Source: Mycolicibacterium smegmatis (GTDB lineage: Bacteria > Actinomycetota > Actinomycetes > Mycobacteriales > Mycobacteriaceae). From it: a stretch of DNA of 32,000 nucleotides. The notes below the pieces were generated by a model. That model was not told the origin of the DNA. It was given only the letters and a program-made list of their open reading frames with translations, and did no database searches. Both the position numbers and the translations under genes were made by a program. The stretch covers positions 4,140,001 to 4,172,000 of the forward strand of contig NZ_LN831039.1 in NCBI RefSeq assembly GCF_001457595.1, read 5' to 3'. Below, one piece after another: positions 10,890 to 28,385 of the stretch; the stretch's first letter is position 1; the number at the start of each line of letters is the position of its first letter.

Positions 10890-11027
10890 AGCTATGACTA
10901 TGCTCTACAGCACAAATGAGGGATACCTTTCGACTCGTGTTCATCGAAAACGTGCTATCCGCTCCTGAGCGGCTCACGTGGTCGGCAAACTCTTCGAGAT
11001 GTTTTGCCGGTGACCCGCATTCGTAAC

Positions 11028-11045
11028 CGATGCCCGCGGGCATCG
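11028..11045. promoter_or_regulatory. perfect 18-bp palindrome CGATGCCCGCGGGCATCG in the AraC/ABC divergent region
   Basis: Read directly from the sequence. It lies 73-90 nt upstream of the binding-protein ATG (11118) and is either an operator or an RNA leader hairpin. A smaller palindrome, TGAGCgGCTCA, is at 10966-10976. Confidence 0.4.
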
Positions 11046-11117
11046 TTGATTTCTGTTGTTACGCAGAGGGTTTTGCGGATGTCGGGAGGAAGCCGACACA
11101 GGAGAATCGAGGTTGAC

Positions 11118-12107: not shown

Positions 12108-12167
12108 CCTGGCCCGGATCCACTCCTGTGCAGCCAGATTCACCCTCGACCGATGAAAGGGCATCGA

Positions 12168-13679: not shown

Positions 13680-13701
13680 AACCCACAGGGAGACAGACGA
13701 T

Positions 13702-14706
13702 ATGAGCACATTACGGTCAGACGCCCACCCTGACGCCACACCGCGGGCCGCATCGCCGAGGTCGTACCGACTCAATGAGATCGGACTTCTGGTCGCGATC
13801 GTCGCGTTGTACATCGCGCTGAGCGCCTCAGCAGCCGGCTTCCTGACTGCCGGCAACCAGTTGGGCATCCTGCGCGACGCGGCAACGATCGGTATCGCCG
13901 CGTGGGGTGTCACGCTCGTGATCATCGCCGGGGACATCGACATCAGTATCGGTCCCGCAGTGGCGTTCTCATCGGTACTGGTCGCCAAGGGAAGTGCCCA
14001 ATGGGGACTCGGTATCGGCGGGGCCATCGTGTTGACCTTGGTCCTCGGCACGCTATGGGGTGCGGTGGCCGGTTATCTACGCGCCCGGTTCAATGTCCCC
14101 TCGTTCATCACCACGCTCGGCTTGTGGAGCATCCTCGGTGGCCTTGCCCTGTACATGACTGACGCGTTGCCGGTGGTGCTCCCGGCCAGCAGCATGATGG
14201 AGGTTCTCGGCGGCGACATTCTGGGTGTGCCCACGTCAGCGATCATCATGCTCGTCCTCTTCGCGGTTTTCGCATACGTTGCGAAGTTCACGGCCTACGG
14301 CCGATCGGTTTATGCCATCGGCGGCAACGCCGCGGCGGCGATGCTTGCAGGCATCAACCTCACCCGCACCCGCGTGATCCTGTTCGCCACCACCGGACTG
14401 CTCTCGGCAGTCACCGGCATCCTGGTTGCGGCGCGTCTCGGATCCGGCAACGGCGGCGCCGCGGGCGGACTCGAGTTCGATGTGATCGCGGCCGTGGTCA
14501 TCGGCGGCACCTTGCTCGCCGGCGGCCGGGGCAGCCTGGTCGGCACCCTTCTCGGGGTCGTGTTCATCACGGTCATCGCCAACGGACTGGTGTTACTCGG
14601 CATCGACTCCTTCCTGCAGGAGGTTGTGCGCGGCGTCATCATCGTCGGCGCAGTGCTGATCAACGTGATCATCGGTCGACGCCGGAATGCCACTCGCACC
14701 ACCTGA
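13702..14706 (+). CDS. sugar ABC transporter permease (RbsC/BPD type 2)
   Basis: Polytopic hydrophobic protein. 'GDIDISIGPAVAFSSV' and 'YAIGGNAAAAMLAGINL' are typical of ribose-type permeases. AGGGAGA SD. Confidence 0.85.
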   Translation: MSTLRSDAHPDATPRAASPRSYRLNEIGLLVAIVALYIALSASAAGFLTAGNQLGILRDAATIGIAAWGVTLVIIAGDIDISIGPAVAFSSVLVAKGSAQWGLGIGGAIVLTLVLGTLWGAVAGYLRARFNVPSFITTLGLWSILGGLALYMTDALPVVLPASSMMEVLGGDILGVPTSAIIMLVLFAVFAYVAKFTAYGRSVYAIGGNAAAAMLAGINLTRTRVILFATTGLLSAVTGILVAARLGSGNGGAAGGLEFDVIAAVVIGGTLLAGGRGSLVGTLLGVVFITVIANGLVLLGIDSFLQEVVRGVIIVGAVLINVIIGRRRNATRTT

Positions 14707-14750
14707 TTCCCCCGACTGACGTGACCACCGACCCGCAGACAGGAAATACC

Positions 14751-15833
14751 ATGAATCACACCACCATTCCCTCCACGATGGACGGTGTATACCTGCCCGG
14801 TGACTCCACCGCAGTACTGAAGCAATTCGACGTCCGCCCACCCGGGCCAGGGCAAGTGCTCCTCGAGATGGGCGCATCCGGCATCTGTGGCAGCGACATC
14901 GGATACATCTACCGCGGGTACAAGGGTTACCGCGGGATCGACGGACCCGCCTACCGAGGTGTGGTCGCAGGCCACGAGCCTGCCGGGCGCATTGTCGCCA
15001 CAGGAGAAGGAGTCACACGCTTCGGCGTGGGCGATCGGGTGCTGCTGTACCACATCGTGGGCTGCGGGCTGTGCGACAACTGCCGCCGCGGCTTCTACAT
15101 CAGCTGCAGTGGAGACCGGGCATCCTACGGGTGGCAGCGCGACGGCGGCCACGCCCGCTATGTGCTGGCCGAGGAACGTACCTGCATCCCCCTGCCCGAC
15201 GAATTGTCGTTCGTCGACGGCGCCCTGATCGCATGCGGGTTCGCCACCGCCTACGAAGGGCTGCGCCGCGCCGGCGTCAGCGGCGACCACGATCTGTTGG
15301 TGGTCGGTCTCGGCCCCGTCGGCCTGGCGGCCGGAATGATCGGCCGGGGCATGGGCGCTGCGACGGTGATCGGCGTCGAGCCCTCCACCACACGCCGCGA
15401 ATGGGCTGACAGCCTGGGAATTTTCGACGCCACCATCCCCGCGGGCCCCGACGCTCTGGACACGATCACAGAACTGACCCGCGGCGCCGGCGCCAGTGTC
15501 ACCATCGACTGCTCGGGAAGCCGCGCGGGGCGTTCGCTGGCACTGGAAGCCGCTGCCGAATGGGGCAACATCTCTCTGGTCGGCGAGGGCAACGATCTTC
15601 ATACGGAAGTGTCGGACACCCTGCTGCACAAGCAGTTGACCATTCACGCCTCCTGGGTCACCTCTCTGCCCACCATGAGTGAGCTGGCCACCAATCTCGT
15701 GCGGTGGAACCTGAAGCCGGAAACCGTCGTCAGCGATATCTTCCCGCTGTCGCAGGCCGCACGCGCCTACGAGTTGGCGGCAGGCACCAGCCGCGGCAAG
15801 GTGTGCCTGGTCCCGGATGGGAACGCCGCGTGA
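14751..15833 (+). CDS. Zn-dependent alcohol/polyol dehydrogenase (MDR, sorbitol/threonine dehydrogenase-like)
   Basis: 'GICGSD' and 'GHEPAG' form the catalytic Zn site, 'GCGLCDNCRRGFYISC' the structural Zn site, and 'VVGLGPVGL' the Rossmann motif. ATG 14751 has an AGGAA SD; GTG 14721 is an alternative start. Confidence 0.85.
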   Translation: MNHTTIPSTMDGVYLPGDSTAVLKQFDVRPPGPGQVLLEMGASGICGSDIGYIYRGYKGYRGIDGPAYRGVVAGHEPAGRIVATGEGVTRFGVGDRVLLYHIVGCGLCDNCRRGFYISCSGDRASYGWQRDGGHARYVLAEERTCIPLPDELSFVDGALIACGFATAYEGLRRAGVSGDHDLLVVGLGPVGLAAGMIGRGMGAATVIGVEPSTTRREWADSLGIFDATIPAGPDALDTITELTRGAGASVTIDCSGSRAGRSLALEAAAEWGNISLVGEGNDLHTEVSDTLLHKQLTIHASWVTSLPTMSELATNLVRWNLKPETVVSDIFPLSQAARAYELAAGTSRGKVCLVPDGNAA

Positions 15834-16783
15834 CGGTCTCCATCCCGCAGTCGTGGGTGACCCACGGCCATCACGATGTGTACTGGATCCGAACCGGCTC
15901 CCTCACTTTGGGTGTGGTGCCGGCGCTCGGCGGGCGGCTGCTCAGCCTGCGACTCGGTGAGCGAGAACTGCTGTGGCGCAACCCCGCACTGCTGGGCGAA
16001 GATCTGCAGCCAGTGGGCGGACACATTCCGGCACCGGTCAGCGGGCGCCTGGGCGACTGGTGCAATTACGGCGGGGACAAGACCTGGCCTGCCCCGCAGG
16101 GCTGGTCGTCACCGCAACAGTGGGCGGGGCCACCCGATCCCGTCCTCGACTCCGGCCACTACGCAGTCGATGTCTGCAGATGGGAGGCCACAACCGAACT
16201 CGCAGTCACCAGTCCGCCCGATCCGCGTACGGGATTACAGATAACCCGGACATTCACCGTCAACACCGACAGTGAATTCGTCATCCACCTGTCCGCGACC
16301 AATGTCACCGATCACGAGGTGACCTGGGCGCTGTGGAATGTGACCCAGCTGCCCGGCGGCGGAACCGTCGAAGTCGATGTGGAACATCGATTCACAGAAC
16401 CCATCGAGATCCTGGCCGGCACCGGTGTGCCGACCTGGCGCCGCAGCGGTCCGGACACCATCACCATCGACCCACAAGATGTCGTCGGCAAGCTGGGGTT
16501 CCCCTACGCCACCGGCAGGCTGCGATATCTACACCAAAATGTCACGCTCGCATGGGATTTCCCTGTCGATGAAGATGCGCCCTACCCGGATGAGGGTGCC
16601 CGGGCCGAGCTGTGGATGGAGCATCCGCAACCGGCGCCGCTGGCCAGTCTCGACGGGCTCGATCCCCCCGACCGCATCGTCGAGTGTGAAGTTCTTTCCG
16701 CGTCGCACACCTTGGCTCCGGGCAGTTCGATGACTTTTCCCGTGAAGCTCAGCGTCCACACCTCCCCTGGCGGTGGGCGGTGA
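15830..16783 (+). CDS. galactose-mutarotase-like fold protein (aldose-epimerase superfamily / DUF4380-like), function unknown
   Basis: 'GGRLLSLRL..RELLWRNP' and 'NYGGDKTWPAPQGW' resemble mutarotase-like DUF proteins; this is recognition from memory only. GTG 15830 overlaps the ADH stop (GTGA). Confidence 0.5.
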   Translation: MTVSIPQSWVTHGHHDVYWIRTGSLTLGVVPALGGRLLSLRLGERELLWRNPALLGEDLQPVGGHIPAPVSGRLGDWCNYGGDKTWPAPQGWSSPQQWAGPPDPVLDSGHYAVDVCRWEATTELAVTSPPDPRTGLQITRTFTVNTDSEFVIHLSATNVTDHEVTWALWNVTQLPGGGTVEVDVEHRFTEPIEILAGTGVPTWRRSGPDTITIDPQDVVGKLGFPYATGRLRYLHQNVTLAWDFPVDEDAPYPDEGARAELWMEHPQPAPLASLDGLDPPDRIVECEVLSASHTLAPGSSMTFPVKLSVHTSPGGGR

Positions 16784-17529
16784 TGACACAAGGGCGTGCA
16801 CGGGTCGCGGTGGTCACCGGCGCCGCTCGCGGCATCGGGGAGGCCACTGCACGACAGCTCCACGCCGACGGATTTGCGGTGGCTCTGATGGACCTCGCGC
16901 CCGAGGTCGGCGACCTGGCCCGCGAACTGTCAGGCGGTACAGGGAATGCGATCGGTATCCGCGGTGACGTCGCCGACCCGCGAGCATGGGCCGATGCCGC
17001 ATCGGCGGCGCGGACCTTGGGGAGTGTCAGCGTGCTCGTCTCCAACGCGATGACCGTCGACATCGCCTCCCTCGACGAGACATCCACGGCCAGCTGGCAC
17101 CGCCAGCTCGACGTGATGCTCACCGGCACATTCCACGGCGTCAAGACGTTCCTGCCCGACCTGCGCGCCGCACGCGGCTCGATCGTGCTGGTGTCTTCGG
17201 TGCACGCCATGTTCGGCCTGCCCGGCCGACCGGCATACGCTGCCGCCAAGGCTGGCCTCACCGGTCTCGGCCGTCAACTCGCCGCCGAGTACGGCCCGCA
17301 ACTGCGGGTCAACACAGTGTTGCCTGGCCCCATCTTGACCGCATCGTGGGACGGTATCGGAGAGCAGGACCGGCGCACCAGCGCGGCGGCCACGGCGCTG
17401 GGCCGGCTCGGCACTCCCCGGGAAGTCGCCTCCGTGATCTCATTCCTGGCGTCCGAGGCAAGCTCGTACATCACGGGTGCCAGCATTCCGGTGGACGGAG
17501 GCTGGAGCGTCACAAAGGATTCCTCATGA
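16783..17529 (+). CDS. SDR-family oxidoreductase
   Basis: 'VAVVTGAARGIGEA', 'SNAM', 'YAAAKAG' (YxxxK) and 'LPGPILT'. ATG 16783 overlaps the upstream TGA (TGATG); GTG 16780 is an alternative. Confidence 0.85.
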   Translation: MTQGRARVAVVTGAARGIGEATARQLHADGFAVALMDLAPEVGDLARELSGGTGNAIGIRGDVADPRAWADAASAARTLGSVSVLVSNAMTVDIASLDETSTASWHRQLDVMLTGTFHGVKTFLPDLRAARGSIVLVSSVHAMFGLPGRPAYAAAKAGLTGLGRQLAAEYGPQLRVNTVLPGPILTASWDGIGEQDRRTSAAATALGRLGTPREVASVISFLASEASSYITGASIPVDGGWSVTKDSS

Positions 17530-18401
17530 CACCTGCACTGACATCCGCATGGCAACCGATCGGTCCGGCCTTGGAACTGGGCGAAGGGGCACGCCTCGTC
17601 GATGGCCAGCTGCTGCACGTCGACCTGCTGAAAGGACGTCTGTTCAGCAGGGATGTGTGCACCGGTGACGTACACCGGCTCGCCGCATTGGATATTCCGC
17701 TGGGCGCCGTCGCTCCGGTGGACGGGCGCGCAGGTGAGTTCATCGCGACGCTGGGTACCGGAATCGGTTTCCTGGCAAAGGGATCCGTCATGCGCGAAGG
17801 GCCGAGTTTCGGTGTTGACGCCACTCGTGTACGAGTGAACGACGGTGCGTGTGATCCCGGTGGAAGATTCTGGGCAGGCGTGATGGCCTACGAACCCTCA
17901 CCCGAGGCCGGCGCGCTGTTCCGCATCGACCGCGACGGCACGATCACCCGTGTCGTCGACGGATTGGCCGTGCCCAATGGCCCAGCTTTCAGTGCATCGG
18001 GAACGGTCATGTATCTGGCCGACAGCGCCGCGGGGCAAATCTACCGGTTCGATGTCGACGAGGCTGGGCACCTCACCGGGCGTGAGGTTTTCGCCACGGT
18101 GGACGGATCACCCGACGGAATGACCGTCGATGCCGAGTCACATCTCTGGACCGCGATCTGGGGAGCAGGTGAAGTGCACCGCTACGCACCCACCGGCGAC
18201 CTCGTGGAGGTCATCCCGGTTCCCGCGCAGCAGCCGACGAGCGTCGCGATCGGCGAGGGGAAGGTGTTTGTCACCTCTGCGACCCACGGGCTGAACCAAC
18301 CGGGGCCCGACGACGGACGGACATTCGCCGCCGACTGTGCCGTTGAGGGTCTGCCCACCTCCGCTTTCAAGCCTGTGACCGGCGGATCGTCCCACGGATG
18401 A
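17526..18401 (+). CDS. SMP-30/gluconolactonase/LRE-family lactonase
   Basis: 'GEGARLVDG', 'NDGACDPGGRFWAG', 'PNGPAFS' and 'PDGMTVD' are beta-propeller lactonase motifs. ATG 17526 overlaps the SDR stop (ATGA). The upstream 180 codons in the ORF track are an out-of-context extension. Confidence 0.8.
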   Translation: MTPALTSAWQPIGPALELGEGARLVDGQLLHVDLLKGRLFSRDVCTGDVHRLAALDIPLGAVAPVDGRAGEFIATLGTGIGFLAKGSVMREGPSFGVDATRVRVNDGACDPGGRFWAGVMAYEPSPEAGALFRIDRDGTITRVVDGLAVPNGPAFSASGTVMYLADSAAGQIYRFDVDEAGHLTGREVFATVDGSPDGMTVDAESHLWTAIWGAGEVHRYAPTGDLVEVIPVPAQQPTSVAIGEGKVFVTSATHGLNQPGPDDGRTFAADCAVEGLPTSAFKPVTGGSSHG

Positions 18402-18463: not shown

Positions 18464-19912
18464 CTACTCGCCCTCGGGATTGCTGTCGAGTGAGAACATC
18501 GCCAACGCGGTGAAGATGTTCATCCTCTTGGCGGGATCGTTGAGGAACTGCCCGGTGATGGACTCGATGCGGTTGATGCGCGCGCGCAACGTGTTCGGAT
18601 GGATGAACAACTTTCGGGCCGACTCGGTGATGTTGCAGTCGGTCGCACGCAGCGTGCGCAGGATCCGGCGTTGGTCGAGAGCGTCAGGGGTGTCGTCGGC
18701 GACCGATCCGAGCGTTTCGGTGACGAAACCGCGCCGGGCGTGTTCGGGCAGCTGGTAAAGGAGGCCGAGGATGCCGAGATCGCGATAGCGTGTCACGCGG
18801 TTGACGCCGCCCACACGTCGCCCGACGGCGACCGCCCGCTGGGCCTGTCGGAAAGCACCCGGATAACTGCGGGGTGCGGTCACCTCGTCGCTCGCTCCGA
18901 TGACCAATGGTGTGCGCACCGCCCGATACAGGCCACGCGACATGATGTCCAACCCGACCGCCGCGTTCACCATCATCACCACCGCACCCTCGTGCACGAT
19001 CGTGATCGCGTCACGGTCGGTGCGCCTCGCCAACGGCTCAAGATCGCTTCGCAGTTGCTGTATGCCCGCCATGGTCACGGCAACACCGAACGGCTCGATC
19101 ACCAGGCACACCAACGGATGCCGGGGAAACATCGACAGTCGGCGGGATCTGCGTAGGGTGGCTTCGCGCGCCACCAGGTCCTCACCGAGGATGGTCTTGA
19201 GATTGCGGGCTGCCTCGGCCGTGGTCTCGTCGTGTTCGGTGTCGCGCAACCGCAGGTGCAGGCGCATCACCGGAATCAGCAGCTCGACGAGTTCGGTCTC
19301 TTCCGGGGTCAGCGCGCTGTCCCGGCGTATCTCGAGCCATGCCGAGCGTCCCCCACTGACGACAGGAAACCCCGCGGTGCCCGCTCCGTTCGTCGGACGA
19401 TCGAGCAGTCGTACCGTCGCATCGAGCGCGCCGCCCAGTTCGTCGAGCAGACGGCTGAGGTCGTCCGCCGCGCCCAGCAGATCGGCCGGCACCGTGAAGC
19501 CCTTACGGGCAGCGCGGGTGGTGTGAGCCATCTGCATGAGCTTGTCGATCTGCGCTCGAACGTCATCAACCGGTGCGGCCTCCATCACCCACAACAGCGC
19601 CACGCCGTGGCGACGGGCGTGCGCAACCACCGGCCGGGGCGGGTTGACCGGCCGTGATGGGGTGATGACCACCGCGGCGGGGCGTTTGGCCAGCAACGGC
19701 TCAAGCGTCGTGAGCAGGTTCGGTAGCGGGCCGTTCGGGCGATGTGGCGCCCAGTCGAGGACCACCAGCGCGCCGTCGAGCGACGCTGCGTCGGAGGCGC
19801 GTTCGGCGTCCATCACGGATTGGACGGCCACGGTCGGATCGTACGGCGGTGCCGCGATCTGCGCTCCGATGGCCGCACCGATTTCGGCAAGCGTGGGACC
19901 CACACTTCCCAC
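18464..19912 (-). CDS. PucR/CdaR-family transcriptional regulator (N-terminal PucR domain, C-terminal HTH)
   Basis: C-terminus 'NITESARKLFIHPNTLRARINRIESITG' is a PucR HTH. The N-terminus 'PTLAEIGAAIGAQIAAPP...VQSV...LDGALVVL' aligns by eye with the PucR N-domain. That alignment favours GTG 19912 (or GTG 19903) as the start, rather than the 680-aa track ORF, which overlaps the oxygenase gene. Confidence 0.75.
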   Translation of the reverse strand: MGSVGPTLAEIGAAIGAQIAAPPYDPTVAVQSVMDAERASDAASLDGALVVLDWAPHRPNGPLPNLLTTLEPLLAKRPAAVVITPSRPVNPPRPVVAHARRHGVALLWVMEAAPVDDVRAQIDKLMQMAHTTRAARKGFTVPADLLGAADDLSRLLDELGGALDATVRLLDRPTNGAGTAGFPVVSGGRSAWLEIRRDSALTPEETELVELLIPVMRLHLRLRDTEHDETTAEAARNLKTILGEDLVAREATLRRSRRLSMFPRHPLVCLVIEPFGVAVTMAGIQQLRSDLEPLARRTDRDAITIVHEGAVVMMVNAAVGLDIMSRGLYRAVRTPLVIGASDEVTAPRSYPGAFRQAQRAVAVGRRVGGVNRVTRYRDLGILGLLYQLPEHARRGFVTETLGSVADDTPDALDQRRILRTLRATDCNITESARKLFIHPNTLRARINRIESITGQFLNDPAKRMNIFTALAMFSLDSNPEGE

Positions 19913-19960
19913 ACCGTGTTCGGGTGCACCTGTGTGCTGCACTTGAGGCAGAGTAACGGT
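19913..19960. promoter_or_regulatory. 48-bp back-to-back control region between the PucR-type regulator and oxygenase 1
   Basis: Contains GTGCA-n9-TGCAC (19924-19942). The 8-bp inverted repeat CACACCGT (19910-19917) / ACGGTGTG (19956-19963) has outer triplets that are the two proposed GTG start codons. Confidence 0.4.
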
Positions 19961-20950
19961 GTGTTGTCCATTCCGCCGGTCGACCTCATTGAAGCTGCCG
20001 CAGACCCGGCCTCGCGTCGGCGACAGTTCGAGCTCCTGGATGCCGCATTCTCCGAGGTCGGGTACGTCCACGTCGTCGGCCATCGGATCCCGTCTTCGGT
20101 GTTCACCGAGCTCTACGCCGTCACGCGGCGCTTCTTCGGTCTCCCGGCGGAGGAGAAGAGCAAGGTAGCGCAGCCGACACCTGAGCAGGTGCGCGGATGG
20201 TCCGGGGCCGGCTCGGAGGGTATGGCCTATTCCCTGGGGGAAGAAACGCACGCCGACCTCAAGGAGAAGATGGACATCGGCCCTGTGACGGGGCCCACCA
20301 TCGGGCAACCGGGCGCCGGGCCGATGGCATACCTGAACCTGTGGCCGGAGCTGCCGGAGTTCCGGACGGCGTGGGAGTGCTACTACCAGCACATGCAACG
20401 GGTGGGCGCCGAACTGCTGGCCTTGGCCGCCGAGGGATTCGGACTGAGCCGGCAGCATTTCGTGCCGTTGTTCGACGCCGAGTTGAGCATGCTTCGCGCA
20501 CTGCACTTTCCGCCGCAGCCCGAGCCGCCCCTACCCCATCAATTCCGTGCCGGTATTCACACCGACTACGGCGCCTTCACCGTGGTCTCCGCCGAATCGA
20601 CACCAGGAGGGTTGCAGGTCCTCGAGGCTGACGGTGAGTGGTTGGAGGTGAACACCACCCCGGCCACGCTGGTGGTGCTGGTCGGGGATCTGCTCGCGGA
20701 GTGGACGGGAAATCACTGGCCGGCGACGTTGCACCGCACGGCCAATCCTCCGCGGTCGGTGGCGTTCGAGAACTCAAGGCTGGCGTTCGCGTTCTACCAG
20801 CATCCGAACTGGGATGTCGAGGTTGCGGAGTTGTCACCGTTCGCCGGTGGTGCGGCCCACGCGACGGACGACGCGCTGGTCTCCGGCAGGCACCTGGCCG
20901 AGAAGTACGTCAGGCAGACGACGTTCGGGACCTCGGATCCCACCGTCTGA
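19961..20950 (+). CDS. 2OG-Fe(II) oxygenase, isopenicillin-N-synthase-like family, paralog 1
   Basis: N-terminus 'VLSIPPVDL' (DIOX_N style), 'HTDYGAFTV' (HxD), 'ATLHRT' (distal His) and 'NSRLAFAFYQHP'. GTG 19961. Confidence 0.8.
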   Translation: MLSIPPVDLIEAAADPASRRRQFELLDAAFSEVGYVHVVGHRIPSSVFTELYAVTRRFFGLPAEEKSKVAQPTPEQVRGWSGAGSEGMAYSLGEETHADLKEKMDIGPVTGPTIGQPGAGPMAYLNLWPELPEFRTAWECYYQHMQRVGAELLALAAEGFGLSRQHFVPLFDAELSMLRALHFPPQPEPPLPHQFRAGIHTDYGAFTVVSAESTPGGLQVLEADGEWLEVNTTPATLVVLVGDLLAEWTGNHWPATLHRTANPPRSVAFENSRLAFAFYQHPNWDVEVAELSPFAGGAAHATDDALVSGRHLAEKYVRQTTFGTSDPTV

Positions 20951-21133
20951 CCGGCGACCCGTGTAAACCGCAGCTTTCGGTATGCGACATCCGTGTGATC
21001 GTCTGTTACATACAGGTTTCCGATGTAAGGCGGTGACAGGCTCACCTTTGATCTGGCGGTGATCGCTGCTCTTGTCGGCACGTGTTCTGCGCCGAAAACT
21101 CGTCGTATCCGCTATGAGACGAGGAGCCAACAC
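20951..21133. promoter_or_regulatory. 183-bp spacer between the two oxygenase genes with inverted repeats; possible internal promoter/operator
   Basis: Visibly less GC-rich than its flanks. Contains TTACAT-n11-ATGTAA (21006-21028) and GGTGA-n5-TCACC (21032-21046). GAGGAG SD at 21121-21126. Confidence 0.3.
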
Positions 21134-22147
21134 GTGTCCCAGGACAATTCGGTAGTACCTGTCATCGACATCGCCGCTCTGCACGGCGACGACGAGGCCG
21201 CCATGATTGCGGTCGCCGCAGAACTCGATGCGGCATGTCGGGAGATCGGTTTCTTCCAGATCCGCAACCACGGCATCTCCGAGGACGTGATCGAGGCGAT
21301 GTACCGCACCGCCGACGAGTTCTTCGCATTGCCAGACGAAGAGAAACGCCTCGTCGCACAACCGAGTTCAGATGCGGTACGCGGCTACTCGTCGATCGGC
21401 GAGCAGGCGTTCTCCTACAGCGAGGACGTGCACCAACCGCGGGACCTGCATGAGAAGTTCGACATCGGACCTGTCGACGTCGACCGCGACGACCCTTACT
21501 ACGCCCCTGAGAACGCCGGACCGCACTTCCTGCCCAACCTGTGGCCACAACGGCCCGCCGGCATGGAGGCAGCTTGGACCACCTATTTCCACGCCATGAA
21601 CGACCTCGCCCGAAAATTGATGAGCGCGTTCGCCCTCGGGTTGAGGTTGCCCGCCGACTACTTCGTCGACACCATCGACCGCGACATCAGCATGCTGCGG
21701 GCGATCAATTACCCGCACCTGAACACCCCGCCTCAGCCGGGACAGATGCGCGCGGGTTCGCACACCGATTACGGCAGTCTGACCATCGTGCGTCAGGAAG
21801 CCGCGCCCGGCGGTCTGGAGGTGTTCACCAAGGACGGCGACTGGATATCGGTACCCGTGGTGCCCGACGCCCTCGTGGTGAACATCGGCGATCTGATGGC
21901 GCAGTGGACCAACGACCTGTGGACCTCGACGCGCCACCGTGTGCGCACCCCCGGTCCTGATGCGTCGGGAGACACCCGTCGCATGTCGCTCGTCTTCTTC
22001 CACCAACCCAACTACGACGCCGTCATCGAGACCCTGCCGACGTGTATCACGGCTGACAACCCGCGCCGCTACGATCCCATCACCTCGGGTGATCACCTCA
22101 CCTCGAAGTTCGAGAAGACCATCGCCCTCGCCTCGACAAATGGTTGA
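21134..22147 (+). CDS. 2OG-Fe(II) oxygenase, isopenicillin-N-synthase-like family, paralog 2
   Basis: 'VVPVIDIAAL', 'GFFQIRNHGI', 'HTDYGSLTIV', 'STRHRV' and 'RRMSLVFFHQP' (RxS). GTG 21134 lies 7 nt after GAGGAG. Confidence 0.85.
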   Translation: MSQDNSVVPVIDIAALHGDDEAAMIAVAAELDAACREIGFFQIRNHGISEDVIEAMYRTADEFFALPDEEKRLVAQPSSDAVRGYSSIGEQAFSYSEDVHQPRDLHEKFDIGPVDVDRDDPYYAPENAGPHFLPNLWPQRPAGMEAAWTTYFHAMNDLARKLMSAFALGLRLPADYFVDTIDRDISMLRAINYPHLNTPPQPGQMRAGSHTDYGSLTIVRQEAAPGGLEVFTKDGDWISVPVVPDALVVNIGDLMAQWTNDLWTSTRHRVRTPGPDASGDTRRMSLVFFHQPNYDAVIETLPTCITADNPRRYDPITSGDHLTSKFEKTIALASTNG

Positions 22148-22412
22148 GAGCTTCGAGATCGAACTGCGCCGCTCCGGCCGGGTGGTGACCGTTCCGTCTG
22201 ACCGCACCGCCCTCTCGGCGGTTCGTGACGTGCTGTCGACCGCCGAATTCGACTGTCTGCGCGGCGAATGCGGCGCCTGTGTGGCGAAAGTCCTGGAGGG
22301 CATACCCGACCACAGGGACACCGTGCTCTCCGAGCGTGCCAGGCAGGCAGGCAAACGAATCATTCTGTGCGTCAGCCGTTCCGCCACGCCGCGGCTCGTG
22401 CTCGACCTCTGA
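22140..22412 (+). CDS. stand-alone [2Fe-2S] ferredoxin domain of the phthalate-dioxygenase-reductase/VanB C-terminal type
   Basis: 'FEIELRRSGRVVTV...CLRGECGACVAKVLEGIPDHRDTVLSERA...IILCVSRSATPRLVLDL' has a Cx4Cx2C...C ligand pattern and the 'DHRD...CVSR...LVLDL' tail. ATG 22140 overlaps oxygenase 2 by 8 nt. Confidence 0.7.
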   Translation: MVESFEIELRRSGRVVTVPSDRTALSAVRDVLSTAEFDCLRGECGACVAKVLEGIPDHRDTVLSERARQAGKRIILCVSRSATPRLVLDL

Positions 22413-22421: not shown

Positions 22422-22838
22422 GTGCCCGTGACACCGACCCTGTCGTTCGCGAGTGTGTTCGCTTCCGACATCGAGAAGCTGAGCACGTTCTACGCAGACC
22501 TGCTCGGCCTGCCCGAGGTTACCGAATTGCGCTCCGAGCATTTCCGTGGGCTGCGGATCGGTCCGACCATACTCGGATTCAGTGCGCCGAGTGCCTACGC
22601 CATGCTGAACCTGACGGCACCCGGAGAGGGCGCCGAAGGAGTGGACACCTTCCTCACATTCGAGATGCCGGACGCCGCCACGGTGGACTCCACCACCGCG
22701 GCGGCGGTCGCCGCGGGCGCACGCTGCGTGCGCGAACCAGGCCGGACATATTACGGCGCCTGGCAGTCGGTGCTCCTCGACCCAGAGGGAAATGCATTCC
22801 GCCTCAACTATCTTCCCCTCGAATCCGCTCAGCACTAA
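22422..22838 (+). CDS. VOC-family (glyoxalase/bleomycin-resistance/dioxygenase fold) protein
   Basis: 'FASVFASDIEKLSTFYADLLGL' and 'LLDPEGNAFRL' follow the VOC pattern; about 138 aa. GTG 22422 follows GAAAGG. Confidence 0.65.
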   Translation: MPVTPTLSFASVFASDIEKLSTFYADLLGLPEVTELRSEHFRGLRIGPTILGFSAPSAYAMLNLTAPGEGAEGVDTFLTFEMPDAATVDSTTAAAVAAGARCVREPGRTYYGAWQSVLLDPEGNAFRLNYLPLESAQH

Positions 22839-22847: not shown

Positions 22848-24158
22848 ATGTCCATCTTCGACTGGCAAGTCAAAAGCGGTGATTCCGTAGTCGCCCCGCA
22901 CGAGCGGCTGAGTTGGCCGCGCACAACGGGAATCGGCCTGCAGCATGTGGTCGCCATGTTCGGTGCGACCTTCCTGGTGCCGGTTCTCACCGGTTTCCCG
23001 CCGGCCACCACACTGTTGTTTTCGGGTCTCGGCACGATCCTCTTCCTGATCATCACGCAGAACCGCTTGCCCAGCTATCTGGGGTCGAGCTTCGCGATCA
23101 TCGCGCCCACCATCGCCGCGTCGACGTCGCACGGCCCATCAGGTGCGCTCGGTGGCATCGTCATCGTGGGCGCACTGCTCATCCTCATCGGCGCCGTGGT
23201 GCACTTCGCCGGTATCGGCTGGATCGAATCGTTGATGCCGCCGGTGGTGACCGGATCGATCGTGGCGCTCGTCGGGTTCAACCTGGCCCCAGCCGCCAAG
23301 GCCAACTTCGAAGAAGACGCTGTCACCGCCGCGGTCGTGCTGGTGCTCTTGCTGTTGTCACTGGTGGTGTTTCGGGGTCTGCTCGGACGGTTGGCGATCT
23401 TCACCAGCGTGGTGATCGGTTACTTCGTGGCACTGGCCCGCGGCAAGGTCGACACCAGCGCTATCGGCGCCGCGGACTGGGTCGGTCTGCCCGAGTTCAC
23501 CACCCCCACCTTCCATCTGTCGGTGCTGCCGATGTTCATCCCGGTGGTGATGGTGCTGGTCGTCGAGAACATCGGCCACGTCAAGTCGATCACGGCGATG
23601 ACCGGCATCGACAACAACAGCCGAGTGGGTCGCGCGCTGGCCGCCGACGGACTGGCGACGGTTCTGGCAGGTAGCGGCGGCGGTTCGGCCACCACCACGT
23701 ATGCCGAGAACATCGGCGTGATGGCCGCGACCAAGGTGTACTCGACCGCGGCCTACTGGATCGCGGGCCTGGCGGCGATCCTGCTCGGCCTCTCCCCCAA
23801 GGTTGGCGCAGTGATTGCCTCCATCCCACCCGGTGTCCTCGGTGGTGTCACCGTCGCGCTCTACGGCCTGGTCGGGATCCTCGGCGTGCACATCTGGGTG
23901 ACCAACAAGGTCGACTTCTCCAAGCCCATCAACCAGTTCACCGCCGCCATCGCCCTGGTGATCGGAATCGCCGACTTCACCTGGAAGATGGGCGATCTCG
24001 CCTTCGGCGGTATCGCGCTGGGCGCGATCGGCGCGGTGGTCGTCTACCACGTGATGCGGATGATCGGGCAGTGGCGCGGCACCGTGATCATCGATGGTCC
24101 GGCGTCTGATGACGCGGCAGCGCAAGATCTCACGGCGGGTCAGAAGGTGGCGCTCTGA
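22848..24158 (+). CDS. NCS2-family nucleobase:cation symporter (uracil/xanthine permease-like)
   Basis: 'GLQHVVAMFGATFLVPVLTG', 'ENIGH' and 'TTYAENIGVMAATKVYS' are NCS2 signatures. AAGGA SD. Confidence 0.85.
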   Translation: MSIFDWQVKSGDSVVAPHERLSWPRTTGIGLQHVVAMFGATFLVPVLTGFPPATTLLFSGLGTILFLIITQNRLPSYLGSSFAIIAPTIAASTSHGPSGALGGIVIVGALLILIGAVVHFAGIGWIESLMPPVVTGSIVALVGFNLAPAAKANFEEDAVTAAVVLVLLLLSLVVFRGLLGRLAIFTSVVIGYFVALARGKVDTSAIGAADWVGLPEFTTPTFHLSVLPMFIPVVMVLVVENIGHVKSITAMTGIDNNSRVGRALAADGLATVLAGSGGGSATTTYAENIGVMAATKVYSTAAYWIAGLAAILLGLSPKVGAVIASIPPGVLGGVTVALYGLVGILGVHIWVTNKVDFSKPINQFTAAIALVIGIADFTWKMGDLAFGGIALGAIGAVVVYHVMRMIGQWRGTVIIDGPASDDAAAQDLTAGQKVAL

Positions 24159-25579
24159 TGGTTACCACCCTGATCCGGGGCGGCACCGTGGTTTCGGCGA
24201 CGGGGCGCCAGTCGATCGACGTGCTGATCGACGGGGCCACCATCGCGGCCCTGATCGAGCCCGGTGCCGCGCCGTTCGGTGATGGGCTCGCCGAACGTGT
24301 CGACAACGTCGTCGACGCCACCGGCAAGTACGTGATCCCCGGCGGCGTTGACGCCCACACCCACATGCAGATGCCGTTCGGTGGCACCACCGCGTCGGAC
24401 ACGTTCGAAACCGGCACGCGCGCAGCCGCACTGGGCGGCACCACCACCATCGTCGATTTCGCGATCCAGACCCCAGGCGAACATGTTCAGGACACTCTGC
24501 AGGCGTGGCACGAGAAAGCGGCAGGGAACTGCGCGATCGATTACGGATTCCACCAGATCATCGGTGACGTCAACACCGAATCACTCGCGGCGATGGGCGA
24601 GCTGATCGACGAAGGGGTCACGAGCTTCAAGCTGTTCATGGCTTACCCGGGCGTCTACTACTCCACCGACGGGCAGATCTTGCGGGCGATGCAGAAGTGC
24701 GCGGAGATCGGCGGGCTGATGATGATGCACGCCGAGAACGGCATCGCGATCGACGAGTTGGTGGCTCAGCACCTGGGTCGCGGCGAGACGGGCCCCTACT
24801 TCCACGGGGTCTCGCGGCCCTGGCAGCTCGAGGAGGAGGCCACTCACCGGGCAATCATGCTCGCCGACGTGACCGGTGCGCCGTTGTACGTCGTCCATGT
24901 TTCGGCACACCAGGCACTCGAACAGATCGCCACCGCGCGGGGCGCCGGCGGGAATGTGTTCGCCGAGACCTGCCCGCAATACCTGTACCTGTCGTTGGAG
25001 GAACAGCTCGGCGCCGGAGGTTTCGAGGGCGCCAAGTGGGTGTGCTCCACACCGTTGCGTGCCCGCTCCGAAGGCCACCAGGACCAGTTGTGGCGCTATA
25101 TCCGCACCGGCGACGTCGCGGGTGTGGCCACCGACCACTGCCCGTTCTGCATGGTCGGCCAGAAGGAACTGGGTATCGGCAATTTCTCGAAAATCCCCAA
25201 CGGCATCGGCGGTGTCGAGCACCGCATGGATCTGATGTTCCAAGGTGTCGTCGACGGGCGAATCAGCCTCGAACGGTGGGTGGAGGTCTGCGCGACCACC
25301 CCGGCGCGCATGTTCGGCCTGTACCCCCGCAAAGGTGTCATCTCGCCAGGGGCCGACGCTGACGTGGTGATCTACGACCCCGCCGGGCACACCAGTATCG
25401 GCGTCGGCAAGACCCACCACATGAACATGGACCACTCGGCCTGGGAGGGCTTCGAGATAGACGGCGCCGTGACGGCCGTGTGGTCGCGCGGAAAGAAGGT
25501 CGTCGAGGACAGGCGCTACCTGGGAGCCAAGACCGACGGTCGATTCGTGCGCCGCGAACTTTCCCAGAATCTCATCTGA
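24158..25579 (+). CDS. hydA: dihydropyrimidinase / D-hydantoinase, copy 2
   Basis: It has the same complete motif set as copy 1 ('GGVDAHTHM', 'SFKLFMAYPG', 'MMHAENG', 'LYVVHVS', 'ATDHCPF'); 473 aa. ATG 24158 overlaps the permease stop (TGATG). Confidence 0.9.
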   Translation: MVTTLIRGGTVVSATGRQSIDVLIDGATIAALIEPGAAPFGDGLAERVDNVVDATGKYVIPGGVDAHTHMQMPFGGTTASDTFETGTRAAALGGTTTIVDFAIQTPGEHVQDTLQAWHEKAAGNCAIDYGFHQIIGDVNTESLAAMGELIDEGVTSFKLFMAYPGVYYSTDGQILRAMQKCAEIGGLMMMHAENGIAIDELVAQHLGRGETGPYFHGVSRPWQLEEEATHRAIMLADVTGAPLYVVHVSAHQALEQIATARGAGGNVFAETCPQYLYLSLEEQLGAGGFEGAKWVCSTPLRARSEGHQDQLWRYIRTGDVAGVATDHCPFCMVGQKELGIGNFSKIPNGIGGVEHRMDLMFQGVVDGRISLERWVEVCATTPARMFGLYPRKGVISPGADADVVIYDPAGHTSIGVGKTHHMNMDHSAWEGFEIDGAVTAVWSRGKKVVEDRRYLGAKTDGRFVRRELSQNLI

Positions 25580-25594
25580 AGAGGAGAACAATCG

Positions 25595-26614
25595 ATGGAT
25601 TTCGGCGTTGTGCTGCAATGCAATCCACCAGCATCCCGGGTCGTGTCGCTGGCTGCGGAGGCTGAGGACCGTGGCTTTTCGCACGTGTGGACCTTTGATT
25701 CGCACGTGTTGTGGCAGGAGCCGTACGTCATCTACAGCCAGATCCTCGCCGCCACCCGCAACGTGATCGTCGGGCCGATGGTCACCAACCCGTTGACCCG
25801 GGACGACACCGTCACGGCGTCGACGTTCGCGACGCTGAACTCGATGTTCGGCAACCGCACCGTATGCGGCATCGGGCGCGGGGATTCGGCGGTTCGGGTG
25901 ATCTCCGGCAAACCCTCTACCGTCACCCATCTACGGGAGAGCATCGAGGTGATCCGGGCGCTGGGCAACGGCGGCAGCGCCACGATCAACGGGGCGACCG
26001 TGCAGTTCCCATGGGCAGCCCGGTCGAGATTGCCGGTATACGGAGCCGGCTACGGGCCGAAGGTGCTCGACCTGATCGGCAGGCACGCCGACGGTTTCAT
26101 ACTCCAACTCGCCGATCCCGCAATCGTCCAATGGACAGTGGGACGCGTACGAAAGGCAGCGGAGCAGGCGGGCCGCGATCCCCGTGATGTGACGATCGTG
26201 GTGGCCTCACCGGCCTACGTCGGCGACAACCTGGCCCACCAGCGCGACCAATGCCGATGGTTCGGCGGAATGGTGGGCAACCATGTGGCCGATCTGGTCG
26301 ACCGCTACGGCGGTGACGGTACACAGGTGCCGGCGGCGTTGACCGATTACATCCGCGACCGGCAAGGTTATGACTACAACGAACACGGCCGCGCGGGCAA
26401 CGCCCACACCGAGTTCGTGCCCGACGAGATCGTGGACCGATTCTGTGTGCTCGGCCCGGCCGAGGACCACGTGCGGCGGCTGCGTGAGCTCGCCGACCTC
26501 GGAGTCGACCAGTTCGCAGTGTATCTACAGCACGACGGAAAGGACGAGACATTGGCTCAGTACGGCGAGGCCGTCATTCCGGCGCTCCAGCCCACCGTGG
26601 CGGCTCGCTCATGA
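25595..26614 (+). CDS. luciferase-like (LLM) oxidoreductase, probably the F420-dependent TIGR03842-type subfamily
   Basis: 'MDFGVVLQCNPPASRVV...GFSHVWTFDSHVLWQEPYVIYSQILAAT...GPMVTNPLTRD.TVTASTFATLNSMFGNRTVCGIGRGDSAVRV' matches my memory of that subfamily; no search was run. GAGGAG SD at 25581-25586. Confidence 0.7.
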   Translation: MDFGVVLQCNPPASRVVSLAAEAEDRGFSHVWTFDSHVLWQEPYVIYSQILAATRNVIVGPMVTNPLTRDDTVTASTFATLNSMFGNRTVCGIGRGDSAVRVISGKPSTVTHLRESIEVIRALGNGGSATINGATVQFPWAARSRLPVYGAGYGPKVLDLIGRHADGFILQLADPAIVQWTVGRVRKAAEQAGRDPRDVTIVVASPAYVGDNLAHQRDQCRWFGGMVGNHVADLVDRYGGDGTQVPAALTDYIRDRQGYDYNEHGRAGNAHTEFVPDEIVDRFCVLGPAEDHVRRLRELADLGVDQFAVYLQHDGKDETLAQYGEAVIPALQPTVAARS

Positions 26615-27906
26615 CGGCCGACACAGTGCGCGTGCCACCGAACCCGGTGTCCGACAATGCTTTCCTGGCCGACTTCGCGGCCATGTCGACCTTCGGAGCG
26701 ACACCCGCGGGAGGTGTGGAACGACAGGCGGGCACCACTGCCGACGGTGAGAACCGGCGCTGGCTTGCCGCCTGGCTGGCCGAGCGCGGTTTCGAGGTGC
26801 GCTATGACCGCATCGGCAACATGTTCGGCCTGTACGAACTGGTGCCCGGCGCTCCCTATGTGCTGGCCGGTTCGCACCTGGACAGTCAACCGCGCGGCGG
26901 CCGTTATGACGGTGCGTACGGGGTCTTGGCCGCCGCGCACGCCGCCACCAGGCTGCTCGACCATTTCCGCGCGAACCCGGGTGCCGCGCGATACAACATC
27001 GCAGTCGTGAACTGGTTCAACGAAGAAGGGTCGCGGTTCAAACCCTCGATGCAGGGCAGCGGGGTGTTCACCGGCAAGCTCGCGCTGCAGGAGGCATTGG
27101 ACACCACCGATGTCGACGGCGTGAGCGTGGCCGAGGCGCTCGGTGCACTCGACATGCTTGGCGAGCGCGACGTCTTCACCGTCGGCGACCACCACACCGC
27201 AGGCGGCGTGCAGGTCGCGTCATACGCCGAGATCCACATCGAGCAGGGCCGCGAACTCGACAAGGCCGGGGTGCCGATCGGCATCGTGCCCTCGACGTGG
27301 GGCGCCAACAAGTACGAGATCTCCGTCGTGGGCGCACAGTCGCACACCGGCGCCACAGCGATCGCCGACCGTCAGGATGCATTGTTGGGTGCGGCGAAAG
27401 TCGTTGTCGCTCTGCGCGAGCTGGCCGACTCCTACGGCGAGGATCTACACACGTCCTGCGGGCAGTTGACCGTTTACCCGAACTCACCGGTGGTCGTCGC
27501 CCGGGAGGTCCACATGCACCTCGACCTACGCTCACCGTCGGACCAGCTTCTCGATGAGGCCGACGCGCGGCTCAACCGGACACTCGCCGAGATCGAAGTT
27601 GCCGCTGACGTGCGCATCGAACGTCGTTTCGCTCATACCTGGAAGGGACACACCTACACTCCCGAGGGCGTCACACTGGCCGAGGCCGCGATCGAGGCAC
27701 TGGAACTGAGCTCGATGCACGTGCGCACGCGCGCCGGCCACGACTCCACGAACATGAAGGACGTCGTTCCGACGGTGATGCTGTTCATCCCCAGCGTCGA
27801 CGGGGTCTCACACGCGGAGAACGAGTTCACCCACGACAAGGACCTGACCACCGGTGTGGATGTGCTCACCGAGACCATGGCACGCATGGTGGAGGGTGAT
27901 CTGTGA
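26611..27906 (+). CDS. M20 Zn-dependent amidase of the hydantoinase/carbamoylase family, copy 2
   Basis: Same motif set as copy 1 ('FGATPAGGVERQAGT', 'GSHLDSQPRGGRYDGAYGV', 'NEEGSRF', 'AGHDSTNM'). ATG 26611 overlaps the LLM stop (ATGA). Confidence 0.85.
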   Translation: MTADTVRVPPNPVSDNAFLADFAAMSTFGATPAGGVERQAGTTADGENRRWLAAWLAERGFEVRYDRIGNMFGLYELVPGAPYVLAGSHLDSQPRGGRYDGAYGVLAAAHAATRLLDHFRANPGAARYNIAVVNWFNEEGSRFKPSMQGSGVFTGKLALQEALDTTDVDGVSVAEALGALDMLGERDVFTVGDHHTAGGVQVASYAEIHIEQGRELDKAGVPIGIVPSTWGANKYEISVVGAQSHTGATAIADRQDALLGAAKVVVALRELADSYGEDLHTSCGQLTVYPNSPVVVAREVHMHLDLRSPSDQLLDEADARLNRTLAEIEVAADVRIERRFAHTWKGHTYTPEGVTLAEAAIEALELSSMHVRTRAGHDSTNMKDVVPTVMLFIPSVDGVSHAENEFTHDKDLTTGVDVLTETMARMVEGDL

Positions 27907-27954: not shown

Positions 27955-28320
27955 GCTCGCCTGTCGATCCGAGCGCGCGCGTCGCATCGAACCGACCACG
28001 GTGGCGCTCACCGCCTGGATGAGGCCGTCGACTTCGTCGTCGACGCGGTGACCGGGTGGGCCCGCCGCGAACCCGTCACGCTGGCGGGCCACAGCTGGGG
28101 TGTATACCCGCTGACCGGAGCCGCGATCCTCCTCGGCGCCGAGCTGATTCGAGAAGTCGTATACGTCAACGCCGTCGTGCCCGAACGTGGCGTCGCCATG
28201 CGCGACAAGAACCCAGCGATGGCGTCAATCATCGACGCTCAGCTCGAAAGCAGCCAGTCGATCTCGGCCTCACCGAGTGACGTCGCCGCCCAGATGATGC
28301 AGGACGAGTCACCAGTCGCC
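27955..28320 (+). pseudogene. internal fragment of an alpha/beta-hydrolase gene (nucleophile elbow retained, both termini missing)
   Basis: The frame reads '...HRLDEAVDFVVDAVTGWARREPVTLAGHSWGVYPLTGAA...REVVYVNAVVPERG...SPSDVAAQMMQDESP'. The GHSWG elbow and following strand are present. There is no room for the N-terminal roughly 40-50 aa after the carbamoylase stop, and the C-terminal third is cut off by the convergent NTase gene. Confidence 0.5.
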
Positions 28321-28385
28321 ACTACTCGAAGGCAAGCAATTTGCCCAGGCGACGTTGCTGAGCCCCGGTGCAGCGCGTGAGGCGC

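Follow-up and report, generated by a model that had tools for sequence, protein, structure and literature searches.

To our knowledge, every dihydropyrimidine dehydrogenase yet characterised is a member of one family of iron-sulphur (Fe-S) flavoproteins, which use NADPH, NADH or ferredoxin. In canonical reductive pyrimidine (Pyd) clusters the gene for this enzyme, PydA, adjoins those for PydB and PydC (PMC7332683). Here we analyse a stretch of 32,000 nucleotides from Mycolicibacterium smegmatis (contig NZ_LN831039.1, positions 4,140,001 to 4,172,000 of the forward strand; hereafter the window), in which the gene MSMEG_4013 encodes a luciferase-like (LLM) oxidoreductase of the family TIGR03842. 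Since this gene is set between those for the step-2 and step-3 enzymes of the pathway, at a locus that lacks the usual enzyme of the first step, we regard its product as a candidate replacement for the dehydrogenase. Specifically, we judge it fairly probable that F420H2-dependent reduction of pyrimidines is the function of MSMEG_4013 and its TIGR03842 orthologues, so that dihydropyrimidine dehydrogenase would be replaced by a protein of unrelated fold and cofactor. An earlier, sequence-only reading of the locus had proposed that this protein reduces pyrimidines, and the comparative genomics described below supports that proposal.

PydA, PreTA and the ferredoxin-dependent PydAc resemble our candidate in the reaction proposed for it (uracil to 5,6-dihydrouracil), which is the first Pyd step, and in their clustering with PydB and PydC (PMC7332683). 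They differ from it in both fold and electron supply. PydA and PreTA have the PF01180 fold of the dihydroorotate-dehydrogenase family, with flavin mononucleotide (FMN) and Fe-S centres, and draw their electrons from NAD(P)H or ferredoxin by way of a transfer chain, whereas the LLM protein is a PF00296 TIM barrel without Fe-S or flavin adenine dinucleotide domains and would receive hydride directly from F420H2. PreA and PreT have no sequence similarity to the LLM protein, but such non-membership says nothing against its working like one of them.

Several described F420 systems provide partial precedents. Reduction of the uracil C5=C6 bond in mureidomycins depends genetically on SSGG-03002/NpsU, a putative F420/FMN oxidoreductase (PMC10714638); this protein of mureidomycin and napsamycin biosynthesis, which we compare by its description, works in secondary metabolism, where its substrate is a uridyl-peptide antibiotic, and its activity was not obtained in vitro. 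LxmJ, an F420H2-dependent LLHT that reduces the C=C bond of dehydroalanine, the picrate reductase, a further precedent with the LLHT fold, and Fht and Fps/Apd6 are reductases that add hydride from F420H2 to activated C=C bonds or ring carbons, but LxmJ, Fht and Fps/Apd6 belong to other subfamilies and have other substrates, none of them in nucleobase catabolism (PMC8498797). The nearest published idea is the ‘yanthine reductase’ of Chloroflexota, in which a predicted F420 protein of PF00296 takes the place of the PydA-like YgfK/UacX in a reductive N-heterocycle pathway (PMC12507026). That proposal, made in 2025 and only a prediction, concerns the breakdown of a purine (uric acid) in a different phylum and does not extend to an F420-dependent version of the Pyd pathway. 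Pyrimidine reductases are not among the F420 enzymes listed in a review of 2021 (PMC8498797), and our search, confined to the openly accessible full-text literature, found no description of F420-dependent uracil reduction by TIGR03842.

The locus itself consists of four packed genes on the + strand of the window. MSMEG_4011 (22848-24158) encodes an NCS2 nucleobase permease, uracil/RutG-like (PF00860, 238 bits); MSMEG_4012, or hydA (24158-25579), encodes a dihydropyrimidinase/D-hydantoinase, the enzyme of pathway step 2; MSMEG_4013 (25595-26614) encodes the 339-residue LLM-class protein, predicted to be F420-dependent and proposed for step 1; and MSMEG_4014 (26611-27906) encodes an M20 carbamoyl-amidase, the proposed N-carbamoyl-beta-alanine amidohydrolase of step 3. 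Adding 4061440 to a window coordinate yields the coordinate in the M. smegmatis mc2 155 genome, as checked against published gene coordinates, and the LLM protein is encoded identically in that strain (CP000480.1, 4087035-4088054). All four reading frames have G+C contents at third codon positions (GC3) of 0.80-0.85, which is a coding signature.

The sequence-only reading had listed three tight junctions between these genes, and reading the sequence directly shows each of them to be exact. The permease and hydA genes meet at TGATG (24156-24160); the hydA stop codon (25577-25579) is followed by a 15-nt spacer that contains the Shine-Dalgarno sequence GAGGAG (25582-25587, + strand) and then by the LLM start codon at 25595; and the LLM and M20 genes overlap at ATGA (26611-26614). 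The same reading had described the four genes as one translational unit. They are indeed packed, but the unit is larger than was supposed and begins upstream at 21134, with MSMEG_4008; from there to the permease the successive junctions are -8, 15 and 9 nt.

Profile scans agree with the permease and dihydropyrimidinase assignments of the sequence-only reading. For MSMEG_4011 the top NCBIfam models are RutG and uracil permease, with both scores under the equivalog cut-offs. MSMEG_4012 reaches 541.7 bits against TIGR02033 (cut-off 393) and up to 446 bits against D-hydantoinases and dihydropyrimidinases in the PDB. The third enzyme is less clear-cut. MSMEG_4014 matches PF01546 and the hydantoinase/carbamoylase-family amidase model TIGR01879 (288 bits, cut-off 204), and among characterised PDB proteins it scores 195 bits with an N-carbamoyl-beta-alanine amidohydrolase (8c46), 183 with a beta-alanine synthase (1r3n) and 142 with an allantoate amidohydrolase. 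It also exceeds the cut-off of NF006772, labelled ‘allantoate amidohydrolase’, and its substrate specificity is not legible from sequence. The step-3 gene proposed earlier does encode an M20 amidase of the carbamoylase family, for which N-carbamoyl-beta-alanine is the proposed substrate.

A gene for the first enzyme of the pathway is conspicuous by its absence from the window. The large open reading frames (ORFs), scanned against Pfam, include no PydA-like gene, and tblastn with Escherichia coli PreA and PreT finds no homologue in the 32 kb (best E = 0.14), in agreement with what the sequence-only reading had reported. Nor does tblastn find a PreA or PreT homologue in 80 related loci, described below, where the best result is a partial match with E = 0.002. 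These clusters encode the steps from uptake to acetyl-CoA, uracil reduction excepted, and the LLM gene is the only conserved redox gene in them that is without an assignment. The gap has been acknowledged before: Petridis et al. reported that the genes of the reductive pathway were incompletely identified in M. smegmatis, and named no dehydrogenase locus (PMC4617892).

MSMEG_4013 is an unambiguous member of its family. It scores 591.2 bits against TIGR03842 (F420_CPS_4043; cut-off 295.45), with residues 2-331 aligned to positions 1-329 of the 329-position profile, so that the membership proposed by the sequence-only reading for the N-terminal half holds for the entire protein. The family was reportedly defined by Selengut and Haft in 2010, and NCBIfam (June 2026) still labels it a hypothetical equivalog of unknown function. 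The sole Pfam domain is PF00296 (197 bits, gathering score 27.9). After TIGR03842, the NCBIfam models that match the protein best are those of Mer, the F420-dependent methylene-tetrahydromethanopterin (H4MPT) reductase, followed by other F420 LLM families, and the solved structures nearest in sequence are likewise Mer (E = 4e-34, approximately 29% identity, end to end) and then Adf, fHMAD and Fgd; a search of PDB sequences returned no solved structure within TIGR03842 itself. An AlphaFold2 model built from 28 sequences (pLDDT 90.8, pTM 0.90, with lower certainty only in an insertion at residues 230-270) has the TIM-barrel fold. When this model is compared with the PDB by Foldseek, the 28 top matches are all chains of F420 enzymes, ahead of any FMN enzyme, and the Mer structures align with TM-scores of 0.77-0.79.

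These results bear directly upon the idea that the LLM protein is an FMN-dependent monooxygenase which attacks the pyrimidine ring oxidatively, as RutA does. Like RutA, the protein belongs to the luciferase-like superfamily and has the PF00296 domain, uracil is the proposed substrate, and the permease alongside has RutG as its best NCBIfam model. RutA, however, cleaves the ring with FMNH2 and O2, in a route that needs no dihydropyrimidinase, and the operon contains no flavin reductase, RutB, RutC or RutD, nor are there rut genes anywhere in the window. No RutA model occurs among the 24 NCBIfam matches of the LLM protein at E <= 0.001, and the FMN-type models reach at best 37 bits (E of 1e-9 or worse), compared with 591 for TIGR03842. 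Since there is neither a RutA match nor a strong match to an FMN family, and since the top structural matches are all F420 enzymes, we reject this explanation as scarcely credible. A better score to FMN-dependent LLM monooxygenases would have counted against the sequence-only reading; instead, the neighbours in sequence and in fold are all F420 families, and we place MSMEG_4013 among the F420-dependent rather than the FMN-dependent LLM proteins, with F420 as its probable cofactor.

Comparison with Mer, the nearest homologue both by sequence and by predicted fold, indicates which parts of the active site are retained. The F420 backstop (GP-x-V-TNP), in the loop that follows beta-3, is present as G60-P61-M62-V63-T64-N65-P66, aligned with G59-P60-G61-V62-T63-N64-P65 of Mer from Methanocaldococcus jannaschii (jMer); in the same alignment the valine that follows the non-prolyl cis peptide of Mer is conserved, and Asp96 corresponds to Asp97. 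The position of the catalytic Glu6, which ends beta-1 in Mer, is by contrast Val6 in the LLM family, and that of Phe233, which stacks against the pterin, falls in a distinct, family-specific motif, RWFGGMVGNH (residue roles in Mer from PMC11094777). Because the backstop and the aspartate are conserved while Glu6 and the Phe233 region are changed, the protein appears, from this alignment, to keep the F420 site of Mer, an enzyme that takes its hydride from F420H2 as is proposed here, together with a different substrate pocket. That the LLM protein might be a true Mer is ruled out by the missing Glu6 and by its scores, which lie well below the cut-offs of the Mer models (138 bits for NF002619, cut-off 276; 121 bits for TIGR03555, cut-off 349); its host, moreover, is an aerobic actinobacterium, and its gene lies in a pyrimidine cluster.

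The association of the LLM gene with a dihydropyrimidinase gene is not peculiar to M. smegmatis. We scanned one genome per species for homologues, found at least 598 species with close ones, and analysed the best 80 loci: their ORFs were called and clustered, recurrent clusters were annotated, and each locus was then scored with probes. All 80 loci are from Actinomycetota, and they include Mycobacteriales, Micromonosporales, Micrococcales, Frankiales, Kineosporiales and Nanopelagicales as well as many Acidimicrobiia (Ilumatobacteraceae) and one member of the Solirubrobacteraceae. Neighbours were counted in the 54 of these loci that have at least 5 kb on both sides. A dihydropyrimidinase gene is adjacent to the LLM gene, or one gene away, in 51 of the 54. 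A nitrilase-superfamily carbamoyl-amidase is present in 48 and an M20 amidase takes its place in 4, so that the co-occurrence which the sequence-only reading proposed to examine holds for hydA, while its M20 partner is found in few loci and the nitrilase type is usual. An ATP-binding cassette (ABC) transporter ATPase occurs in 40/54, a class III aminotransferase in 29/54, a CoA-acylating (methyl)malonate-semialdehyde dehydrogenase in 24/54 (TIGR01722, 709 bits) and a MocR-type regulator in 20/54.

The linkage of the LLM gene with hydA is kept in Actinomycetes, Acidimicrobiia and Thermoleophilia while the order of the genes varies. Common arrangements are amidase-hydA-LLM-ABC-aminotransferase and amidase-hydA-dehydrogenase-LLM-ABC; the M. 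smegmatis order, permease-hydA-LLM-M20, is a minority form common to Williamsia and M. canariasense, and two Rhodococcus loci have the same genes, reordered in one of them. Identity of the LLM protein across the classes is 65-81%, compared with 60-88% for hydA in all but one outlying locus; judged by these values, the LLM protein is at least as conserved as its partner. More divergent TIGR03842 proteins (42-45% identity) still adjoin Amidohydro_1 genes, CN_hydrolase genes or both, and on one such contig an ABC transporter and an aminotransferase are also present.

The composition of these clusters also allows us to weigh the possibility that the LLM protein acts after ring opening, for example as an F420H2-dependent reductase of malonate or methylmalonate semialdehyde that detoxifies the aldehyde, like RutE/YdfG or PydE. 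F420 LLM proteins do include dehydrogenases at the alcohol/aldehyde level (Adf, Fgd and fHMAD), and in many loci the semialdehyde dehydrogenase gene lies directly between hydA and the LLM gene. Yet the constant partner is hydA (51/54) and not the aminotransferase (29/54), and 24 loci already encode a CoA-acylating dehydrogenase for the semialdehyde. In M. smegmatis the operon is without an aminotransferase, so no semialdehyde would be made locally. Mer, the closest homologue, reduces a C=N+ centre of a pterin rather than a carbonyl. We therefore consider a role after ring opening improbable.

The regulation of the locus is known from published data. MSMEG_4008-4014 is an operon activated by GlnR and induced by nitrogen starvation (PMC3662644), with GlnR-dependent inductions, from MSMEG_4008 to MSMEG_4014, of 49-, 6.6-, 21-, 18-, 15.9-, 10.5- and 5.6-fold (PMC3662644 supplement). 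In nitrogen-limited chemostats MSMEG_4011, MSMEG_4012 and MSMEG_4013 rise 6.3-, 9.4- and 3.5-fold, and the divergent regulator gene MSMEG_4006 rises 3.1-fold (PMC4617892). Chromatin immunoprecipitation sequencing (ChIP-seq) places a GlnR peak at 4082411-4082451, that is, window 20971-21011, assigned to MSMEG_4008 (PMC3662644). At the edge of this peak a candidate GlnR-box-like site, GAAACctgtatGTAAC followed by A (21005-21020, - strand), matches the published motif Gn2AC-n6-GnAACA, a pattern that is not significant by itself, with 9 matches in the window compared with 4.2 expected. Uracil is a GlnR-dependent nitrogen source for growth of M. smegmatis (PMC4222082). The organism is also a standard F420 producer (PMC3012119, PMC8498797), so that the sequence-only reading is not undone by a lack of F420 biosynthesis.

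Given the number of such proteins in the genome, we must ask whether the LLM gene could simply have come to lie here by accident, or could serve some general redox function, without taking part in pyrimidine breakdown. For M. smegmatis approximately 45 LLHT-family proteins are predicted, and a single chance adjacency would be unremarkable (PMC8498797). The adjacency, however, recurs in 51 of 54 loci, in three classes and in variable gene orders; the LLM gene is translationally coupled at both ends; and it is co-induced with its neighbours. An accidental position is thus very improbable.

Taken with the gene content, these observations suggest the following route, in which we infer what the LLM protein reduces, which way the hydride moves and that F420 is the cofactor. 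Uracil would be taken up by the NCS2 permease, or by the ABC transporter in most other Actinomycetota. F420H2 donates hydride obligately and at low potential, and can reduce enones, enoates and enamines; the LLM protein would transfer hydride from C5 of F420H2 to C6 of uracil, and an active-site acid would protonate C5 of the uracil to give 5,6-dihydrouracil. Candidates for this proton donor, all invariant in the family, are H37, D97, H230, Y259, Y261, H264 and C284. The adjacent dihydropyrimidinase would open the ring to N-carbamoyl-beta-alanine, which the M20 amidase, or elsewhere the nitrilase-superfamily amidase, would split to NH3, CO2 and beta-alanine. In many relatives the class III aminotransferase and the CoA-acylating malonate-semialdehyde dehydrogenase of the cluster could then take beta-alanine to acetyl-CoA. 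Because GlnR turns the genes on under nitrogen starvation, the pathway would serve to scavenge pyrimidine nitrogen.

A number of observations weigh against this proposal, and it is important to set them out together. Our search for PreA and PreT covered the window and the 80 loci, so a canonical enzyme may be encoded elsewhere in the genomes. The E6Q variant of jMer retains 0.4% of kcat (PMC11094777), and it is this residue that is Val6 in the LLM family. Three of the 54 loci have no hydA, and in one of them a 3.4-kb gap contains nothing recognisable. The M20 amidase and the NCS2 permease of M. smegmatis are minority partners, the nitrilase amidase and the ABC transporter being the prevalent ones. 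TIGR03842 members of approximately 40% identity occur in other contexts, partly N-heterocyclic ones; one of them adjoins MaoC and acyl-CoA ligase genes. A general dihydropyrimidine dehydrogenase would normally take thymine as well as uracil. M. smegmatis, however, does not use thymine as a source of nitrogen (PMC4222082).

To these we must add the other hydantoinase genes of the genome. A paralogous cluster, MSMEG_3993-3996 (window 2478-9757, - strand), lies 17 kb upstream of the LLM operon. Its dihydropyrimidinase is 76% identical to MSMEG_4012 and exceeds the TIGR02033 cut-off, and its M20 amidase is 64% identical to MSMEG_4014; the cluster also encodes a short-chain dehydrogenase/reductase (SDR), a protein like EutA and arylmalonate decarboxylase and a major facilitator superfamily transporter, and is accompanied by a divergent PucR regulator gene, MSMEG_3997. 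Published GlnR ChIP peaks fall within it, at about window 7811-7851 and 8611-8651. This second hydA/M20 pair has no LLM gene, and it follows that hydA and M20 enzymes are not strictly dependent upon an LLM partner. Outside the window, in the genome region 3612964-3615436, published annotation lists a hydantoinase, MSMEG_3553 (3612964-3614376), an N5,N10-methylene-H4MPT reductase, MSMEG_3554 (3614417-3615436), whose 1020 nt equal the length of MSMEG_4013, and a beta-alanine synthase, MSMEG_3555 (PMC4617892). It is possible that MSMEG_3553-3555 is a second hydA-LLM-amidase set, which would speak in favour of the proposal, the identity of MSMEG_3554 being taken from its published annotation and its length only.

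The last point against plain uracil reduction comes from the genes upstream of the permease. The divergently oriented gene MSMEG_4006 (18464-19942, - strand) encodes a regulator of the PucR/CdaR family (PF13556 HTH_30 and GGDEF_2), and in Williamsia, Rhodococcus and M. canariasense it accompanies the module. It is followed on the + strand by a 2-oxoglutarate (2OG)-Fe(II) oxygenase, MSMEG_4007 (19961-20950; PF14226 and PF03171), by a second such oxygenase, thymine-7-hydroxylase-like, which is the first gene of the operon (MSMEG_4008, 21134-22147; PF14226 and PF03171), by a small 2Fe-2S ferredoxin of 90 residues whose gene overlaps the preceding one by 8 nt (MSMEG_4009, 22140-22412; PF00111), and by a glyoxalase/VOC-family protein (MSMEG_4010, 22428-22838; PF00903). 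The fungal thymine dioxygenase 5c3p is the best PDB sequence match of MSMEG_4008, over its full length (E = 7e-48), and the second-best match of MSMEG_4007 (E = 3e-30); no iso-orotate decarboxylase gene is seen beside the two oxygenases. In published M. smegmatis tables another 2OG oxygenase, MSMEG_2569, is paired with a xanthine/uracil permease, MSMEG_2570. Two distant metagenome-assembled genomes (MAGs), one from the Frankiaceae and one from an unclassified member of the Actinomycetota, also have an oxygenase-VOC pair beside their LLM-hydA clusters, and this recurrence suggests a functional link. Oxygenases of this kind, the ferredoxin and the VOC protein have no place in a simple three-step pathway, and because the operon contains thymine-hydroxylase-like oxygenases, a modified pyrimidine is a possible substrate of the M. 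smegmatis copy.

Depending upon how much weight is given to these upstream genes, the LLM protein might perform the same chemistry upon another substrate (a 5-substituted uracil, a cyclic ureide or a hydantoin precursor), leaving plain uracil to MSMEG_3553-3555. Apart from the two thymine-dioxygenase-like enzymes, the ferredoxin and the VOC protein with which the operon opens, points in favour of this alternative are the conservation of the eight-gene module, which is intact in M. canariasense, Williamsia and Rhodococcus, and the presence of three hydantoinase clusters in M. smegmatis; the hydA family, moreover, also cleaves 5-substituted hydantoins, and TIGR02033 is itself named D-hydantoinase. 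Set against this, MSMEG_4013 is 65-81% identical to orthologues from clusters that have no oxygenases and whose downstream enzymes are specific to beta-alanine, an identity across both kinds of cluster which argues for one substrate throughout. The top models of the permease are RutG and uracil permease, and the use of uracil and the operon are both GlnR-dependent. We thus regard a different substrate as unlikely, although it is the alternative to which we give the most weight.

A broader version of the same thought would combine the two halves of the module. MSMEG_4006-4014 may constitute a hybrid pyrimidine route not yet described, in which the 2OG oxygenases, ferredoxin and VOC enzyme first remodel 5-substituted pyrimidines and the LLM protein then reduces the product with F420H2, preparing it for opening of the ring by hydrolysis. 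Separately, TIGR03842 enzymes at large would carry out the dihydropyrimidine dehydrogenase step in Actinomycetota generally. The substrates may be thymine and 5-hydroxymethyl-, 5-formyl- and 5-carboxyuracil, perhaps derived from modified DNA. This combination is speculative, and we hold it to be slightly more doubtful than a simple change of substrate. If it were true, F420 would serve as a cofactor in the core metabolism of nucleobases and nitrogen in abundant lineages of soil and aquatic habitats.

Even the narrower proposal, that TIGR03842 proteins are F420H2-dependent pyrimidine reductases, would have several consequences if true. It would provide a clean case of non-orthologous replacement of dihydropyrimidine dehydrogenase, and would fill the acknowledged gap in the pyrimidine pathway of M. 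smegmatis. It would supply a function for a family found in at least approximately 600 species, including abundant freshwater and marine Acidimicrobiia and Nanopelagicales, and a role in primary nitrogen metabolism for one of the LLHT proteins of M. smegmatis, many of which have no known function. Bacterial PreTA inactivates 5-fluorouracil, so that drug metabolism could be affected by an actinobacterial analogue that has gone unrecognised; such an enzyme would also be of interest to biocatalysis, as an ene-reductase that uses F420 on cyclic enamides.

Some further observations concern the wider family. In M. canariasense the regulator, two oxygenases, ferredoxin, VOC protein, permease, hydA, LLM (77% identical) and M20 genes are intact and are flanked by completely different genes, and this module appears to travel, or to be retained, as a whole. 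Locus L092 (8001-16022) holds an extended form of the LLM cluster: the end of an Amidohydro_1 gene and a TIGR03842 gene of 42% identity overlap, and the next genes are a CN_hydrolase, an FAA_hydrolase, a second LLM gene, two CoA-transferase subunits, another amidohydrolase and an aminotransferase. A divergent branch of TIGR03842 in loci L099 (1-17000) and L088 (41% identical, 399 bits to the model) lies among genes for an ATP-dependent hydantoinase (HyuA/HyuB), a Bmp-family nucleoside-type ABC transporter, DUF1989, a second LLM protein of 441 residues, an isochorismatase, an amidase and a cyclase, in what looks to be a separate island for the catabolism of N-heterocycles. TIGR03842, at 68% identity, is also represented on a MAG contig labelled ‘uncultured Bifidobacterium sp.’; because this contig is so short (2.1 kb), a binning error is more likely than a true occurrence in Bifidobacterium. 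Ten over-long relatives of the LLM protein (380-529 residues), considered as possible Rosetta-stone fusions, contain only PF00296, save for one solute-binding fragment, and look miscalled or chimeric.

Within the window, long antisense ORFs such as 24581-25930 (- strand, 449 residues) were set aside as artefacts of high GC content by their inverted GC1/GC3 pattern. A scan for promoters and terminators between 19900 and 28400 produced nothing that exceeded the shuffled expectation. An unrelated cluster for sugar or lactone utilisation occupies 11004-18401 (+ strand), behind an AraC regulator gene at 9993-10889; it encodes an ABC sugar transporter (binding protein, ATPase and permease), a zinc alcohol dehydrogenase, a DUF4380 protein, an SDR and a protein like SMP-30/gluconolactonase. 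Finally, a 110-residue ORF at 28048-28380 (+ strand) has the nucleophile-elbow motif GHSWG without a Pfam match, and is probably what remains of a truncated alpha/beta hydrolase, situated between the operon and a convergent nucleotidyltransferase gene.

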